Origin: a virus
Lineage: Duplodnaviria; Heunggongvirae; Uroviricota; Caudoviricetes
Virus record (IMG/VR): IMGVR_UViG_2547132277_000003
Direction: 5' to 3' (one strand)
Length of the DNA: 7,045 nucleotides
How positions within the stretch are numbered: the stretch's first letter is position 1; each line of letters starts with the position of its first letter. Shown piece after piece: positions 853 to 7,045 of this stretch. Below the pieces are notes generated by a model. It had not been told where the DNA came from. It did not search any database and saw nothing but the letters and a program-made list of their open reading frames with translations. The translations under genes were made by a program, and so were the position numbers.

Positions 853-953
853 GAGTGTTCCCTTTGTGGTGTAGGAACCTTAAGGAAACAACATGTTGGG
901 TGGAGCGGACAATCCAAATGGTGAATTACTGTCTTATATCATTGGCGCTGACA
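1..953 (-). mobile_element. IS21-family insertion sequence, left end plus 5' part of istA (partial; continues beyond window start)
   Basis: Contains the istA 5' region. On the minus strand a TG-initiated putative terminus TGTCAGCGCC (plus 944-953) lies 101 bp upstream of the istA start, and a related copy TGTCCGCTCC (plus 903-912) sits 41 bp inside it, matching the multiple-terminal-repeat layout of IS21-family ends. Boundary placement is inferred, not verified. Confidence 0.55.
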
Positions 954-1251
954 AAAGGACGGTACCAGCCGGAAGCAAGGGTACAAACTGGTACCGCCAG
1001 GACTACACACAGCATAAAGTTGTGGTGCCGGGTGCCTCCCGGTGCCTGGCGAAGGTTGCACACCAGACGGGTGGGTATCCACAGAAGGTCGACTGTCAGC
1101 CTCAACCTTAACCCGCGTGCGCTGAGCCGCATTCACCACAACGCTAAGGATTCTCTTTGGTTGAAAATACTTAGCTGTTATGTGCCTGTCTTTTCACCAC
1201 TTCAGGCTCGGTGGTATCCTTTTAAGCCCGTATACATAAAAGGAAAATCAA

Positions 1252-1497
1252 ATGACTTTTGATGAAAAAGAACTTGATAATGCAATTAATAAAATCATCG
1301 TAACGTCGCTCTTTTCCTGTCTCAGCGACACTCAGCAGAAACAGTTCTACGAATCGGCTTTCAACATGATCGAGCGTTGTTGTTTCTGCGATGCCGACGA
1401 GTTACCTGAAAAAATCAGGAAACAGTTGGCTGATGCTCTTCGAGTGCGACTTTCTGACCAATTTTCTGAAATGTGCTCTCCGAATTTGGACAAATAG
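1252..1497 (+). CDS. hypothetical small protein (81 aa), AT-rich accessory-type gene
   Basis: ATG at 1252 preceded by AGGA (1241-1244) at 7 nt spacing. Codon usage is plausible and an AT-rich 8 bp hairpin (1507-1514 / 1525-1532) lies just after the TAG stop. No recognisable family. Its 3' end overlaps a convergent minus-strand ORF, so only one of the two may be real. Confidence 0.4.
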   Translation: MTFDEKELDNAINKIIVTSLFSCLSDTQQKQFYESAFNMIERCCFCDADELPEKIRKQLADALRVRLSDQFSEMCSPNLDK

Positions 1498-1690
1498 AAA
1501 AAGGCCATTTCCATTCAGGGTCTGATGGAAATACTTCAGCCTGTTCCAAAGCACGGCGTAAAGAGAACACAACTCCAGCCATAATCTGATGTTTCCCATT
1601 GGTCCAGCTATCGCCGCTCTGATCTACAGGGGCGGCTATGTCGTATGACCAAACGACTTCACAGTTATTGTTTAAAATCTGGACTTTCAT
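1415..1690 (-). CDS. hypothetical small protein (92 aa) in the PL-proximal position downstream of the repressor
   Basis: Start taken at the internal ATG (complement of 1688-1690) because it is preceded by GCAGGTG at 6 nt spacing; the ORF-track start at 1711 has no Shine-Dalgarno. It lies about 200 bp downstream (minus strand) of the OL-like operator pair. It is not Arg-rich, so not an obvious N-like antiterminator. It overlaps the 3' end of the plus-strand ORF 1252-1497 by 83 bp. Confidence 0.3.
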   Translation of the reverse strand: MKVQILNNNCEVVWSYDIAAPVDQSGDSWTNGKHQIMAGVVFSLRRALEQAEVFPSDPEWKWPFSICPNSESTFQKIGQKVALEEHQPTVS

Positions 1691-1897
1691 TTCATACACC
1701 TGCTTTAACATGAGTGCCTAGTGGCACAACATGACTCAACGAATCATCCTGGACTTCATATGCCCCAGGCGGCTACTTCGTGGGCGTCCTGCCTGTTCGT
1801 TTTTGACATTTACTGACTGCTTACGACACATGCACCGTGTTGCAACCAGATTTTGTTGTAATCCTGTAGTTGGTCTGGAACAAAAGATAAAATTAAA

Positions 1898-1934
1898 TTG
1901 CGAGACATGCAAATGATATTTGCGAGATATGCAA
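1898..1934. promoter_or_regulatory. OL-like operator pair: two 15-bp dyads TTGCGAGACATGCAA (1898-1912) and TTGCGAGATATGCAA (1920-1934)
   Basis: Near-identical direct repeats, each with inverted half-sites TTGCG / TGCAA, sharing the motif found in the repressor-cro intergenic region. A weak candidate leftward promoter overlaps them (minus-strand -35 TTGCAT at plus 1906-1911, -10 TATCTT at plus 1883-1888). Confidence 0.5.
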
Positions 1935-1988: not shown

Positions 1989-2681
1989 TTAATTATGTCT
2001 CTTAAGGGTTTGCGACTGACTGATTAAGACCTTTCCAAAGACCATGAATCGGTGTTCGTTTTCGCTAGTAATTCCCCATTCACGGTAAATCTGGTTATCA
2101 GAAATCACCAGCAGTTTGTCAGGAATCATTTGAAGTCTTTTAACGTATATTTTGTCATCAAAACCAAAGACATATATACCATCACCATCAAACTGATTGA
2201 TGCTGACATCAACGAAGATGAGATCTCCGGGCTCAATGGTTGGACACATACTGTCCCCACGAACGTTGATAACTTTGATGTGATTGGCTGGTCGTCCGCC
2301 GAACATTGATACAGCATTATCAGTTCTGTATTCGATGGCATGAATCACATCAATGACATCACCGCCCTGGATAAGGCCATTTCCCGCACTGGCACTGATA
2401 TCCAGCATTTCAATACGGAACACATCCTTCACCTGCGCAACATCCTCATTATTACTGTTTTTATATACAGTATTACTTTTGTGGGCAGAGGTAAAGAGAT
2501 CAGCAATATCAACACCTAAGCTCTTGGCAATATTACTCAGTGTTTGTTCGGTAAATTGTTTTTGCTTACCCGTTTCTAAGCGCGAGATGTTCGCCGCATC
2601 TACTCCTATCGCTTCAGCGAGATCGGCGATTTTCATGTTCTTCGCTTGGCGAAGTTGTCTGACTCGGTTTCCTATGTTCAT
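1989..2681 (-). CDS. CI-type prophage repressor (N-terminal XRE-family HTH + C-terminal S24 LexA-like autopeptidase)
   Basis: 230 aa. N-terminus IGNRVRQLRQAKNMKIADLAEAIGVDAANISRLETGKQ is a classic HTH. The C-terminus carries the S24 signature GDSMCPTIEPGDLIFVD (Ser nucleophile) and IYVKRLQ (general-base Lys), with an Ala-Gly candidate cleavage site in DISASAGNG. The start has no Shine-Dalgarno and sits 6 nt after a -10-like hexamer. Confidence 0.9.
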   Translation of the reverse strand: MNIGNRVRQLRQAKNMKIADLAEAIGVDAANISRLETGKQKQFTEQTLSNIAKSLGVDIADLFTSAHKSNTVYKNSNNEDVAQVKDVFRIEMLDISASAGNGLIQGGDVIDVIHAIEYRTDNAVSMFGGRPANHIKVINVRGDSMCPTIEPGDLIFVDVSINQFDGDGIYVFGFDDKIYVKRLQMIPDKLLVISDNQIYREWGITSENEHRFMVFGKVLISQSQTLKRHN

Positions 2682-3039: not shown

Positions 3040-3583
3040 GCATCACTGGAAAGTAGAAAAACAGCCTGAGTGGTACGTGAAAGCTGTCAGAAAAACTATC
3101 GCAGCGTTGCCGGGGGGGTACGCTGAAGCTGCTGACTGGCTGGATGTAACAGAGAACGCATTATTTAACCGCCTTCGTGCCGATGGCGATCAGATTTTCC
3201 CGCTGGGATGGGCAATGATTTTGCAACGTGCTGGTGGAACTCACTTCATTGCTGACGCTGTGGCGCAGTCTGCAAATGGCGTCTTTGTGTCTCTTCCTGA
3301 TGTCGAGGATGTGGACAACGCCGATATCAACCAACGCCTGCTGGAGGTCATTGAACAGATCGGCAGTTATTCAAAACAGATTCGTTCAGCAATCGAAGAC
3401 GGTGTAGTGGAACCGCATGAGAAAACTGCAATTAACGACGAGCTATATCTCTCAATTTCGAAGCTGCAGGAGCATGCAGCACTGGTCTACAAAATCTTTT
3501 GCATTTCAGAAAGTAATGACGCCCGCGAGTGTGCAGCTCCGGGCGCCGTGGCGTGTCGTGACTGTGGAGAAACTAACGCATGA
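3032..3583 (+). CDS. phage CII-like regulatory protein (CP76-type, ~183 aa)
   Basis: GTG start at 3032 preceded by AGGAGGT (3019-3025). Position immediately after cro and its size fit the enterobacterial prophage CII-like (CP76) family. The family call is from memory of that family and is not verified; the C-terminus has a Cys cluster [13 protein letters not shown]. Confidence 0.65.
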
Positions 3584-3918
3584 ACAGTTTAACAACACAC
3601 TACCGTCGCTCGCAACTGATTGCGCTTCCTGTACCGGGTGGAAAAGCGAAGGTGGAGTATTGCTATGCAGTAAATGTACCAGGTGACAGGGAAATTGTAA
3701 CCCACAGCTTTGCAGAGTGGGCTGTGGGTGATTTCAACCGGCAGAAGGAGACAGTCCTTTGCGACAAGTTAACCGCTGGTTCAAAGATCACTACGGAGTG
3801 CCCGTCAGAGTCATTCGTTGGGAACCGGAAACACAACGGGTTATCTACCTCCGCGAAGGCTATGAGCATGAGTGCTTCAGTCCGCTCGAACAGTTTCGTC
3901 GTAAATTCAGGGAAATAG
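3580..3918 (+). CDS. hypothetical protein (112 aa); frame is uncertain in its 3' half
   Basis: ATG at 3580 overlaps the CII-like stop (ATGA) and has GGAG 9-10 nt upstream. The N-terminal ~57 codons look protein-like, but the 3' half ([48 protein letters not shown]) is Ser/Thr-rich and reads like an out-of-frame translation. Confidence 0.3.
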
Positions 3919-3938
3919 AGGTCGGTCATGAGCACTAA
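3759..3938 (+). CDS. hypothetical small protein (59 aa, TTG start), alternative frame to the 3' half of 3580-3918
   Basis: Manual translation in the third frame: (M)[58 protein letters not shown]. Balanced, aromatic- and charge-rich composition. A perfect SD AAGGAG (3745-3750) lies 8 nt before TTG at 3759. Missed by the ORF track, probably because of its short length. Confidence 0.35.
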
Positions 3939-4869
3939 ATTAACCGGCTATGTATGGGATGGTTGCGCAGCGTCAGGCATGAAATTATCCAGCGTGGCAA
4001 TTATGGCCCGCCTGGCTGATTTCAGTAATGACGAAGGTGTGTGCTGGCCATCAATTGAAACCATTGCCCGTCAGATTGGCGCGGGGATGAGTACCGTCAG
4101 AACGGCTATCGCACGGCTGGAAGCAGAAGGCTGGTTAACGCGTAAGGCGCGTCGCCAGGGTAACCGCAATGCGTCGAATGTTTATCAGCTTAACGTTGCG
4201 AAGCTTCAGGCAGCGGCATTTTCTCAACTGTCAGATTCTGACCCGTCAAAATCTGACGCATCAAAATCTGACCCGTCAAAATTTGATGCGTCGAAATCTG
4301 GCAAAAAAGCGGGTTTTCACCCGTCAGAATCTGGCGGGGATCCGTCAGTAAAATCAAAACATGATCCGTCAGATAAAAAAACTTCTCGTCCGGACGCTTC
4401 GCAACCGGACACGCAGACGGCTGAACAGGAGTTTTTAACTCGCCATCCTGATGCGGTTGTATTCAGCCCTAAAAAGCGCCAGTGGGGAACGCAGGATGAT
4501 TTGACCTGCGCACAGTGGCTCTGGAAAAAAATCATCGCCCTGTACGAGCAGGCCGCCGAATGTGACGGCGAGGTGGTTCGTCCCAAAGAACCGAACTGGA
4601 CAGCCTGGGCAAACGAAATTCGCCTGATGTGTGTGCAGGATGGTCGTACTCATAAACAAATCTGCGAGATGTACAGCCGCGTCAGTCGCGATCCGTTCTG
4701 GTGCCGTAACGTGCTCAGCCCGTCGAAGCTGCGGGAAAAATGGGATGAGCTTTCCCTGCGCTTATCGCCGTCCGTCAGCACGTACACCGAAAAACGCGAA
4801 GACCCGTACTTCAAAGCCAGTTACGACAACGTGGACTACAGCCAGATCCCGGCAGGATTCAGGGGGTGA
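3928..4869 (+). CDS. phage replication initiation protein, O-like (N-terminal winged-HTH domain, iteron-encoded linker, C-terminal domain)
   Basis: 313 aa, SD GAGGT (3918-3922) 5 nt before the ATG. N-terminus VWDGCAASGMKLSSVAIMARLADFSNDEGVCWPSIETIARQIGAGMSTVRTAIARLEAEGWL resembles the HTH of prophage replication initiators. The central low-complexity linker (SDSDPSKSDASKSDPSKFDASKS...) is encoded by tandem DNA repeats, as in lambda O where the origin lies inside the gene. Confidence 0.8.
   Translation: MSTKLTGYVWDGCAASGMKLSSVAIMARLADFSNDEGVCWPSIETIARQIGAGMSTVRTAIARLEAEGWLTRKARRQGNRNASNVYQLNVAKLQAAAFSQLSDSDPSKSDASKSDPSKFDASKSGKKAGFHPSESGGDPSVKSKHDPSDKKTSRPDASQPDTQTAEQEFLTRHPDAVVFSPKKRQWGTQDDLTCAQWLWKKIIALYEQAAECDGEVVRPKEPNWTAWANEIRLMCVQDGRTHKQICEMYSRVSRDPFWCRNVLSPSKLREKWDELSLRLSPSVSTYTEKREDPYFKASYDNVDYSQIPAGFRG
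4228..4380. repeat. iteron-like tandem repeats (putative phage replication origin) inside the O-like gene
   Basis: Five contiguous 15-bp units at 4228-4302 (cTGTCAGATTCTGAC, CCGTCAAAATCTGAC, GCATCAAAATCTGAC, CCGTCAAAATTTGAT, GCGTCGAAATCTGGC), then further CCGTCAG-initiated copies at 4321, 4342 and 4366. Each unit has internal dyad symmetry (GTCAGA / TCTGAC). A moderately A-rich stretch (4343-4381) follows. Confidence 0.6.
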
Positions 4870-6013: not shown

Positions 6014-6336
6014 CGACGTTAACTCAATGCCAGCAGCAGGTGCTGGATATGCTGATTTCTTATCAGAAAGAACGTGGCTTCCCGCCAACCAATCAGGAGG
6101 TGGCAACCATGCTGGGATACCGTTCGGTGAATGCAGCGGTGGAGCATCTTCGCGCACTGGAGAAAAAAGGCGTCATCACGATAAAGCGTGGCGTGGCCCG
6201 GGGGATAACGCTTCATACCGCGGTGAAGGACGACGACAGCGAGGCGGTCGGGATTATCCGCGCACTGCTTGCCGGTGAGGAAAACGCAAGGCTGCGTGCA
6301 ACCCACTGGTTACATGAGAGGGACCTGAAAGTATGA
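6010..6336 (+). CDS. LexA-like DNA-binding-domain-only protein (winged HTH, no S24 peptidase domain)
   Basis: 108 aa. LTQCQQQVLDMLISYQKERGFPPTNQEVATMLGYRSVNAAVEHLRALEKKGVITIKRGVARGITL parallels the LexA N-terminal domain (LTARQQEVFDLI...[36 protein letters not shown]...) but the protein ends about 35 residues later with no Ser/Lys dyad. ATGA overlap with the Dam stop. Confidence 0.75.
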   Translation: MTTLTQCQQQVLDMLISYQKERGFPPTNQEVATMLGYRSVNAAVEHLRALEKKGVITIKRGVARGITLHTAVKDDDSEAVGIIRALLAGEENARLRATHWLHERDLKV

Positions 6337-6614
6337 AGCTGATCCTGCCTTTTCCGCCCAGCGTGAACACGTACTGGCGACACCCCAACAAAGGGGCGTT
6401 TGCTGGTAAGAGCCTGATAAGCGCGGCGGGGCGAAAATTCCAGAGCGCGGCGTGCGCAGCAATAGTTGAGCAGTTACGTCGTCTGCCGAAACCAACGTCG
6501 GCACCTGCTTCAGTGGAGATCGTGTTGTTTCCTCCGGATAGACGGGATGGAAAACCGCCGCCATCGCCTGAACTGGGAAATGAGCCGGGACAGGTGTTTG
6601 CGGCTTGGCAGTAA
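6333..6614 (+). pseudogene. rusA: RusA-family Holliday-junction resolvase, C-terminally disrupted (catalytic Asp region missing)
   Basis: N-terminus MKLILPFPPSVNTYWRHPNKG matches the RusA signature (E. coli RusA LPWPPSNNRYYRHNRG). Similarity continues through ...VEIVLFPPDRR, but the expected RRDLDN...K...D catalytic segment is replaced by DGKPPPSPELGNEPGQVFAAWQ-stop. No alternative frame in 6538-6660 restores it. ATGA overlap with the upstream gene. Confidence 0.55.
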
Positions 6615-6650
6615 CCGGCTCATTTAAACCGTCTGGTCTGTTTCCTCCGG
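6526..6650. repeat. 12-bp exact direct repeat TGTTTCCTCCGG (6526-6537 and 6639-6650) flanking ~101 bp at the rusA breakpoint
   Basis: Seen directly in the sequence. The first copy lies within rusA codons just before homology is lost; the second lies 44 bp upstream of the right-hand transposase start. Confidence 0.6.
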
Positions 6651-6693
6651 CTCTACAAAAATAATGTCCATCATTTTTAATGGACACTATCGT

Positions 6694-7045
6694 ATGAAAC
6701 ACCGGACCTGGATCACTGAAGCTTTACGTCTTCACTTTGAAGAACATTTACCCCGGGTTGTGGCCGGGCGTCGCCTGGGTGTACCAAAATCAACAGTTTG
6801 TAGTATGTTCGTGCGCTTTCGGAGAGCTGGCCTTTCGTGGCCTTTGCCCGCAGGCATGTCGGAGCAGGAACTTGATGCCTGCCTTTACGGACAATTTTCC
6901 ACGATACCAGTCGTACGTCCTGAAAGCACCGTTATATCCGAAGCCCCCGTGGTAAAAAAACGTCCCCGGCGGCCCAACTTCCCTTATGAGTTTAAAATCG
7001 CCTTAGTGGAGCAGTCACTGCAGCCCGGAGCCTGTGTGGCGCAGA
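6694..7045 (+). CDS. IS transposase, N-terminal part with two HTH regions (family uncertain, IS3-family OrfA-like; partial, runs off window end)
   Basis: Manual translation from ATG 6694: MKHRTWITEALRLHFEEHLPRVVAGRRLGVPKSTVCSMFVRFRRAGLSWPLPAGMSEQELDACLYGQFSTIPVVRPESTVISEAPVVKKRPRRPNFPYEFKIALVEQSLQPGACVAQ..., no stop before the window end. The second HTH resembles IS2-type OrfA ([25 protein letters not shown]). It differs from the left-hand IstA, so the two flanking elements are different. Confidence 0.6.
   Translation, partial: MKHRTWITEALRLHFEEHLPRVVAGRRLGVPKSTVCSMFVRFRRAGLSWPLPAGMSEQELDACLYGQFSTIPVVRPESTVISEAPVVKKRPRRPNFPYEFKIALVEQSLQPGACVAQ

Follow-up and report, generated by a model that had tools for sequence, protein, structure and literature searches.

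The window analysed here is a 7,045-nt stretch of DNA (IMG/VR record IMGVR_UViG_2547132277_000003) with 100% identity to the chromosome of Escherichia coli O6:H16 strain 2014EL-1346-6, and it represents a prophage of the SfV/SfII/e14/CPS-53 kind. Next to the cI-like repressor gene of this prophage lie two small open reading frames (ORFs) that face each other, termed here the plus gene and the minus gene after their strands. These two ORFs form an obligate module, invariably convergent and with one fixed relative frame, and their 3' ends always overlap. In the window, the tail-to-tail overlap amounts to 83 bp (1415-1497), as the original prediction had it, and the Shine-Dalgarno sequences it placed at both starts are present as well: AGGA at 1241-1244, 7 nt from the ATG at 1252, and AGGTG at 1701-1697, 6 nt from the ATG at 1690. 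The 92 amino acids (aa) it gave for the minus ORF are essentially right, being 91 aa and a stop. The minus frame is open from position 1711 onwards (98 aa, 1415-1711). This 98-aa start is not conserved among homologues, and as all of them begin at the second methionine (MKVQIL...), the gene is taken as the 91-aa version. Its stop codon, at 1415-1417, exists because codon Leu51 of the plus gene is TTA, which reads as TAA on the opposite strand; relatives carry ATG at this place.

The size of the two ORFs carries little information. No fewer than 75 ORFs of at least 30 aa are present in the window, some of them spurious antisense ORFs as long as 193 aa, so ORFs of this size are no more than expected by chance and their reality was tested by conservation. 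Public annotations are of little help, as they disagree: SfV and RefSeq call the minus ORF only, and other phage records the plus ORF only. The plus gene is left unannotated by the Prokaryotic Genome Annotation Pipeline (PGAP) in this genome, and at diverged loci, gene callers usually report just one of the two genes.

Near-identical relatives of the pair are abundant, and scans of the IMG/VR proteins returned near-identical copies only. Diverged loci (numbered with the prefix L) were obtained from a search of contigs encoding relatives. They comprise Rac-like prophage loci in metagenome, Salmonella and Klebsiella contigs (L007-L010, L013, L182-L184), Yersinia enterocolitica prophage loci (L011, L012) and more distant loci found by a profile search with the minus family (L174-L177, L306-L308). 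All 13 distinct diverged loci, from Escherichia, Salmonella, Klebsiella, Yersinia and metagenomes and down to ~30% identity, hold relatives of both genes. The two face each other in an unchanged relative frame in each of the 13, and their open frames share 116-173 bp. The spacing is equally strict: from the plus ATG to the minus ATG there are exactly 439 nt in eight loci, though the nucleotide identity drops to 53%, and in the same eight loci, the plus stop is confined to codons 76-82. Homologues of the plus gene occur in Klebsiella, Salmonella and Yersinia, with 27-46% identity in L174-L176 and L306-L308. The pair itself was found in 400 of 5,426 complete E. coli genomes (~7%); a scan of species-representative genomes returned no relatives. 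This constant joint inheritance suggests a coupled, switch-like module and not two stray reading frames.

The pattern of substitutions bears on the reality of the two genes. Nonsynonymous (pN) and synonymous (pS) differences were calculated by the Nei-Gojobori method between the window and L007, with codons outside the overlap. For the plus gene, pN is 0.18 and pS 0.83; for the minus gene, the values are 0.18 and 0.86. The mean pairwise site variability at the three codon positions, calculated over eight gapless loci, follows the plus frame across plus codons 1-61 and the minus frame across minus codons 1-64 (Table 1). Between these regions lies a stretch in which all three positions are constrained, and these ~45 nt specify the C-terminal helices of both proteins on opposite strands. 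Among E. coli genomes, 170 near-identical copies resolve into 27 haplotypes, and both ORFs are intact in all of them. The density of single-nucleotide polymorphisms is lowest in the overlap, with three in 83 nt vs. 14 in 163 nt and 17 in 193 nt. Protein-level selection thus acts on both genes, and it is by this conservation, not by length, that the two ORFs stand out from chance. It is considered very probable that they are genuine genes forming an obligate pair. An unconserved strand, or homology to a mundane phage protein, had been named beforehand as an outcome that would speak against the pair; both strands proved to be conserved and no such homology was found.

Table 1. Features of the convergent pair and its surroundings in the window, and cassettes occupying the same slot in other prophages. 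Variability is given for codon positions 1/2/3. PL, leftward promoter; OL, left operators; HTH, helix-turn-helix.
Feature	Position	Strand or frame	Remarks
Conserved upstream block	1183-1220	+	TGCCTGTCTTTTCACCACTTCAGGCTCGGTGGTATCCT (also given as TGCCTGTCTTTTCACCACTTCAGGCTCGGTGGTATCC); ~30 nt before the plus-strand start codon
Plus gene	1252-1497	+	81 aa; PHROG family phrog_3311
Minus gene	1415-1690	-	91 aa and stop; SfV orf33 family, phrog_3195; RefSeq/PGAP annotates the same
Dual-coding stretch	1435-1479	both strands	~45 nt; plus codons 62-76 opposite minus codons 71-85; all three codon positions constrained
Plus codons 1-23		plus frame	Variability 0.26/0.15/0.47
Plus codons 24-61		plus frame	Variability 0.27/0.21/0.47
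Dual-coding stretch, by codon position	1435-1479	plus frame	Variability 0.23/0.22/0.30
Minus codons 1-64		minus frame	Variability 0.24/0.15/0.43
Structured RNA-like element	1738-1801	+ favoured	64 nt; between the minus gene and PL
Element, helix P1	1738-1743/1796-1801		
Element, helix P2	1748-1752/1765-1769		
Element, invariant hairpin	1770-1791		GGCGGCUACUUCGUGGGCGUCCUGCC
Candidate PL	-35, 1912-1907; -10, 1889-1884	-	-35 TTGCAT, 17 nt, -10 TATCTT; hexamers inferred from sequence
Putative OL operators	1898-1912 and 1920-1934		TTGC-N7-GCAA; perfect copies, left of cI
Intrinsic terminator of the cI-like repressor gene	1969-1942	-	Terminator scan; identical sequence annotated in SfII
cI-like repressor gene	1989-2681	-	S24/HTH (Pfam match); next to the pair
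Slot cassette, e14			ymfI (+)/ymfJ (-)
Slot cassette, strain XDL			ECs1072-family gene and 68-aa minus gene
Slot cassette, SfIV			ECs1072-family gene; no minus-strand partner annotated
Slot cassette, SfII			SfII_36 and 68-aa gene
Slot cassettes, YeP1 and AH07			Own pair each

Both proteins are small, soluble and acidic: the plus protein has a pI of 4.6, the minus protein a pI of 4.95 with a net charge of -4.3, and the grand averages of hydropathy (GRAVY) of the two are -0.40 and -0.38. Over the 91-aa core, SfV orf33 and the minus protein are identical. Matches were obtained between the plus protein and phrog_3311 (E = 1.2e-55, full length, 1-81 of 81) and between the minus protein and phrog_3195 (E = 6.4e-70, 1-98 of 98), two families labelled 'unknown function'. 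They are the sole matches for the two proteins and the proteins of the alternative cassettes in Pfam, NCBIfam, PADLOC and PHROGs. A sequence-profile search of the PDB gave nothing below E = 0.9, and PADLOC-DB v2 no credible match, the best being the plus protein vs. SspC (E = 0.035 over 24 residues). Some sources call the plus protein 'ChaB' or 'phage tail protein', but these labels have no support. The AlphaFold2 model of the plus protein is a three-helix bundle with a predicted local distance difference test score (pLDDT) of 83, for which Foldseek identified no significant match in the PDB or BFVD. The earlier failure to assign either ORF to a family thus persists after profile and structure searches. 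In the records and literature searched, no mention was found of an obligate pairing or overlap of phrog_3195 and phrog_3311, each annotation found calling one of them. As neither protein matches any family of assigned function, and the modelled plus protein no fold, their function has to be deduced from the anatomy of the locus.

Members of the minus family vary substantially in length, from 91 to 162 aa. According to the profile search, the conserved core comprises residues 1-85 and is followed by an unconstrained C-terminal tail, while some members also carry N-terminal extensions. The stop position varies and the tail region evolves in the plus frame; the long C-terminal extension in relatives is not a domain but a shadow of the plus gene, produced by read-through. 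For the same two reasons, its Cys/His-rich composition in long minus ORFs was rejected as a zinc motif. A relation between the N-terminal extensions and the 105-aa upstream gene of L007 was too weak to be retained (E = 0.02).

The position of the minus gene relative to the immunity region is constant, as members of its family always adjoin the repressor gene in the same orientation. Leftwards from cI, the order is the cI terminator, two operators, a possible PL, a leader of ~186 nt and the minus gene, which would accordingly be the first gene after the putative promoter. Perfect copies of TTGC-N7-GCAA occur in the window only as the two OL sites and one site in the right operator region (OR, 2702-2716). 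The OR side (2702-2764) contains one perfect copy and one with a single mismatch; the OL and OR operator-like sites define the immunity specificity, which is in common with SfII. The original prediction placed the minus ORF where lambdoid phages carry their first PL gene and remarked that it is not Arg-rich like N. Both points are borne out: the acidic minus protein lacks an Arg-rich motif and a Pfam match, and it does not resemble a lambda N-type antiterminator by pI, charge or Pfam (boxA and boxB were not searched for).

On the other side of the pair, the conserved block upstream of the plus gene has a form common to several cassettes, TGCCTGTCTTTTCACCACnTCAGGCTCGGTGGTATCC, and precedes the plus-strand gene in five cassette types (the 81-aa plus family, e14 ymfI, ECs1072, SfII_36 and YeP1), AH07 being the exception. 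It could function as a promoter, with a -35 of TTCACC (1193-1198), a 16-nt spacer and an extended -10, TGgTATCCT (1212-1220). In e14, a genomic-SELEX (systematic evolution of ligands by exponential enrichment) site of RNA polymerase lies between xisE and ymfI (PMC5493296). Recombination of the cassettes has its left boundary at this block. Flanked by conserved sequence, the slot is filled by at least five unrelated cassette types, in which a plus-strand gene faces a minus-strand one where a partner is annotated (Table 1). As the same block stands ahead of unrelated plus-strand genes, the slot is a cassette-swapping hotspot, with the early-left genes on one side and the immunity region on the other in SfV/e14-like and Rac-like prophages. 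The description of the slot as accessory is in agreement with the literature, in which the cI-N region is a mosaic hotspot with rexAB and BstA among its occupants (PMC8585504).

Homology of the studied pair to ymfI/ymfJ or to the other slot cassettes was rejected, as no similarity was detected. Among the others, YmfJ resembles the YeP1 minus gene and the 68-aa gene of XDL resembles a Yersinia gene; no other similarities were identified. A replacement can be followed directly in SfII, which is identical to the window up to GGTGGTATC (~1219) and again from ~1650, the swap starting right after GGTGGTATC. At 3473-3524 of SfII (L002), equivalent to ~1650-1690 of the window, codons 1-15 of the minus gene survive and end in a stop (MKVQILNNNCEVVWA*), and a different convergent cassette takes over from there. 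This remnant is a direct footprint of cassette replacement inside the minus gene. In the Yersinia loci L011 and L012 (3034-4439), two convergent cassettes are arranged in tandem, with the structured element (3854-3924) between them and not beside PL. The tandem arrangement indicates that the pair and the promoter block can insert as a unit.

This structured RNA-like element, which in the window separates the minus gene from PL, is itself widespread. BLAST revealed its conservation in many phages with differing cassettes and immunity regions, and in many SfV/e14/ST64B/Rac-like prophages it adjoins the immunity region. A pattern scan of IMG/VR yielded 140 unique versions, and ~1,800 of the 5,426 complete E. 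coli genomes contain it. Its two helices covary strongly: in 35 diverse sequences, 96.5% of the cells are paired vs. 34-55% with a slid partner, nine pairs have changed on both sides, and the covariation score is 0.474 vs. at most 0.09 for the slid controls. In the validated helices, G.U outnumbers A.C by 30 to 15, standard pairs make up 96.4% on the plus strand vs. 85.7% on the minus strand, and the 3' flank is T-rich on the plus strand. Given the G.U excess and the T-rich flank, the RNA is probably made on the strand of the plus gene, antisense to the PL leader. No covariance model of Rfam matched at E <= 1 anywhere in 1200-2000, and the sequence string of the element did not occur in the literature searched.

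Several known structures were compared with the element. The put features consist of two stem-loops on the PL or PR (rightward promoter) transcript strand, putL and putR (PMC9378689). A put-like or nut-like PL leader RNA was rejected, both on the strand evidence, which is opposite to PL, and because the covariance model of the element (R1) had no match in the early region of HK022. An integron attC-like site and a hammerhead ribozyme were rejected as well, since junction lengths and motifs do not fit. Since L003, L174, L176 and L183 lack the element, the pair can do without it. In ECs1072-type cassettes, a canonical plus-strand terminator is located 9 nt before it. The element may serve as a 3' stabiliser or terminator of plus transcripts, as an insulator shielding cI from antisense transcription or as an independent RNA.

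As for the remainder of the window, Cro-like, CII/CP76-like and O-like genes follow to the right of the repressor. To the left, the IS21-family insertion sequence (IS) ISEc62, with istA on the minus strand, ends near 952 and splits the early-left operon (yfdP, yfdQ etc. beyond). An IS66-family element begins at ~6690 (tnpA from 6695) and truncates a RusA-like gene, a pseudogene in RefSeq. The IS-disrupted stretches are 1-952 and 6333-7045, and owing to this disruption the prophage is probably defective. The pair does lie between the IS and the repressor terminator, as predicted, with the addition that ~300 bp of prophage DNA separate it from the IS. This DNA contains a ymfH-like pseudogene, in which a sub-threshold Rfam match to the prophage small RNA STnc100 abuts the IS21-family insertion (949-1164, minus strand; 36.5 bits vs. 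a gathering score of 47, E = 2.7e-5). The AT-richness attributed to the region holds relative to the left side only, the GC content being 0.40-0.45 vs. 0.54-0.55 there and 0.37-0.48 on the cI side. Inside the O-like replication gene (3928-4869), repeat units TCAAAATCTGAC(C/G)C(G/A) at 4215-4330 are probably origin iterons; they encode peptide repeats such as DPSKSDASKSDPSKFDASKS and are the source of a spurious mir-5880 match in Rfam.

The best explanation for these observations as a whole, with a probability of about 0.55, is an obligate module whose genes are reciprocally expressed and whose products are partner proteins. The minus gene would be transcribed first from PL and, since this promoter is repressed by cI, it would be made on induction or infection. 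For the plus gene, transcription would start at a promoter of its own, within the conserved upstream block, and proceed towards PL, so that the gene could be expressed in the lysogen. The terminator scan detected no terminator-like site on the plus strand between 1497 and 1780. As there is no room for a terminator between the genes, each transcript would have to run antisense through the other. The plus transcript would probably reach ~1805, covering the minus gene in full, ribosome-binding site included, and PL transcripts would likewise run antisense through the plus gene. Convergent transcription and duplexes of the 3' RNA would then lead to reciprocal expression, with the plus gene on in the lysogen and the minus gene on derepression, and the two proteins would most likely act as antagonists or partners, one a factor of the lysogenic state and the other of the early lytic phase. 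Taken alone, reciprocal expression is given slightly less than an even chance. Of the functions proposed originally, an antisense-regulated pair would fit the conserved convergent overlap. An analogy comes from the e14 slot: its minus-strand gene ymfJ and the PR-side gene ymfM are induced together at a late stage of the SOS response, and the YmfJ protein has been detected (PMC11002266). The plus-strand slot gene ymfI responds much less (PMC11002266).

Several points weigh against this explanation. The expression model relies on the sequence and on the analogy with e14, of which the slot proteins are unrelated to the pair. Judged by consensus, the candidate plus promoter is weak, and the promoter scan missed it because only eight of its 12 hexamer positions match; the block could instead be an RNA hairpin (GCCTG/CAGGC), for which a compensatory change is found in L011. 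In some Rac-like loci (L176), the repressor terminator lies ~20 nt before the minus Shine-Dalgarno sequence, leaving little room for a separate PL. Neither protein matches a defence, toxin or regulator family, and the AlphaFold2 model of the minus protein, a beta-hairpin followed by two helices, is poor (pLDDT 61) and too uncertain for a fold search.

Different explanations have to be weighed against the coupled module. It is quite unlikely that the two are independent accessory genes (morons), neighbours by chance, the overlap of which is due to genome compaction without any coupling. Phage genomes are indeed compact and many unrelated small genes occupy the slot, but independent genes in a mosaic hotspot would be expected to separate. 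Here, they co-occur in 13 of 13 loci across genera and two prophage backbones, with spacing and frame invariant and the dual-coded segment conserved. Hardly any credence is given to the idea that just one ORF is a gene and the other a shadow frame held open by the codon usage of the opposite gene. The conflicting annotations, with the minus ORF alone in some sources, the plus ORF alone in others and callers mostly reporting one, could be read in this way, and in relatives, the extended C-terminal tail of the minus ORF truly is such a shadow. However, the large non-overlapping part of each ORF varies at its own third positions with pN far below pS, and both frames remain open, with Shine-Dalgarno sequences, down to ~30% identity.

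Concerning function, a toxin-antidote or abortive-infection/self-immunity module, in which the partner protein or its antisense mRNA neutralises a protein harmful to the host or to incoming phage, in the manner of txpA/RatA and bsrG/SR4 or of P22 sieB/esc/sas, is unlikely. The obligate pairing, the convergent 3' overlap, the small, acidic and soluble nature of both proteins and the immunity-adjacent slot, which elsewhere houses rexAB and BstA (PMC8585504), would suit such a module. On the contrary, no match exists in PADLOC, Pfam or NCBIfam, neither protein is hydrophobic (GRAVY ~-0.4), unlike type I toxins or SieB, and the 'antitoxin' would be protein-coding. The suggestion that the slot holds exclusion or defence cargo found no supporting evidence, as no credible PADLOC match and no fold or family match emerged; a defence or exclusion role is possible, and any specific role such as exclusion is doubtful. 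It is very unlikely that the minus protein is an early-development regulator replacing N, cIII or Kil-type functions, with the plus gene acting as an antisense brake on a leaky PL and its protein incidental. The minus gene does come first after the putative PL, its e14 analogue ymfJ is induced on repressor cleavage, and the plus transcript would span the minus ribosome-binding site. Yet the plus protein is under strong purifying selection and is, for that reason, not incidental, and the minus protein is acidic, without an Arg-rich motif or HTH. The most far-reaching form of the partner-protein explanation, a new kind of prophage switch module with mutually silencing mRNAs and antagonistic products, a lysogen-state guard and an early-lytic effector, is rather improbable. 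If true, it could act, for example, as exclusion with built-in self-immunity or as a lock on induction. It would be one of several interchangeable convergent cassettes, with the shared promoter block and the RNA at 1738-1801 in the same regulatory unit.

Whatever its role, the pair has practical consequences. One member is lost in annotation pipelines (in RefSeq, this genome retains the minus gene alone), and as a result, a gene present in ~7% of complete E. coli genomes, and in prophages of Shigella, Salmonella, Klebsiella and Yersinia as well, is mostly invisible. Long-term antisense dual coding is seen here in a clean natural example, with a signature measurable per frame, and the pair may serve as a benchmark for overlapping-gene detection. 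The immunity-adjacent slot of lambdoid prophages is where functions of the rexAB, sieB and BstA type were found, and a conserved module with a shared promoter block and a covarying RNA is a cheap target for studies of exclusion, induction control or host takeover. The pair would gain in interest should its proteins turn out to form an antagonistic switch or the neighbouring RNA to be functional.

In comparison with known systems, the closest in arrangement are the e14 ymfI/ymfJ, ECs1072, SfII_36, YeP1 and AH07 pairs, which share the slot, the flanking RNA element and the facing orientation, with genes overlapping or abutting. Lacking any sequence similarity to the studied pair, they are alternative cassettes and not relatives. 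In lambda OOP RNA/cII and in txpA/RatA and bsrG/SR4 of Bacillus prophage-like elements, convergent transcripts are complementary at their 3' ends, and the RNA duplex lowers the partner. However, one partner is a non-coding RNA in these systems and the type I toxins are hydrophobic, whereas here, both partners are conserved soluble proteins. The gene geometry does fit the 3' overlap of a type I toxin-antitoxin system, yet both partners are protein-coding and under selection. With GRAVY values of -0.40/-0.38 and predicted folds of a three-helix bundle and of a hairpin with helices, neither is a hydrophobic membrane toxin. A type II system is not indicated either, the genes being convergent and without a match to a toxin or antitoxin family or fold. 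The sieB gene is opposed by an antisense RNA from the PL side. SieB is a membrane protein and BstA a large DNA-binding protein, and the studied pair has no homology to them. The P22/lambda sieB-esc-sas genes, lambda rexAB and BstA are, likewise, accessory genes beside the repressor and PL (PMC8585504). The pair fits no known system and is an obligate, convergent, partly dual-coding pair within the known category of immunity-adjacent prophage accessory cassettes.

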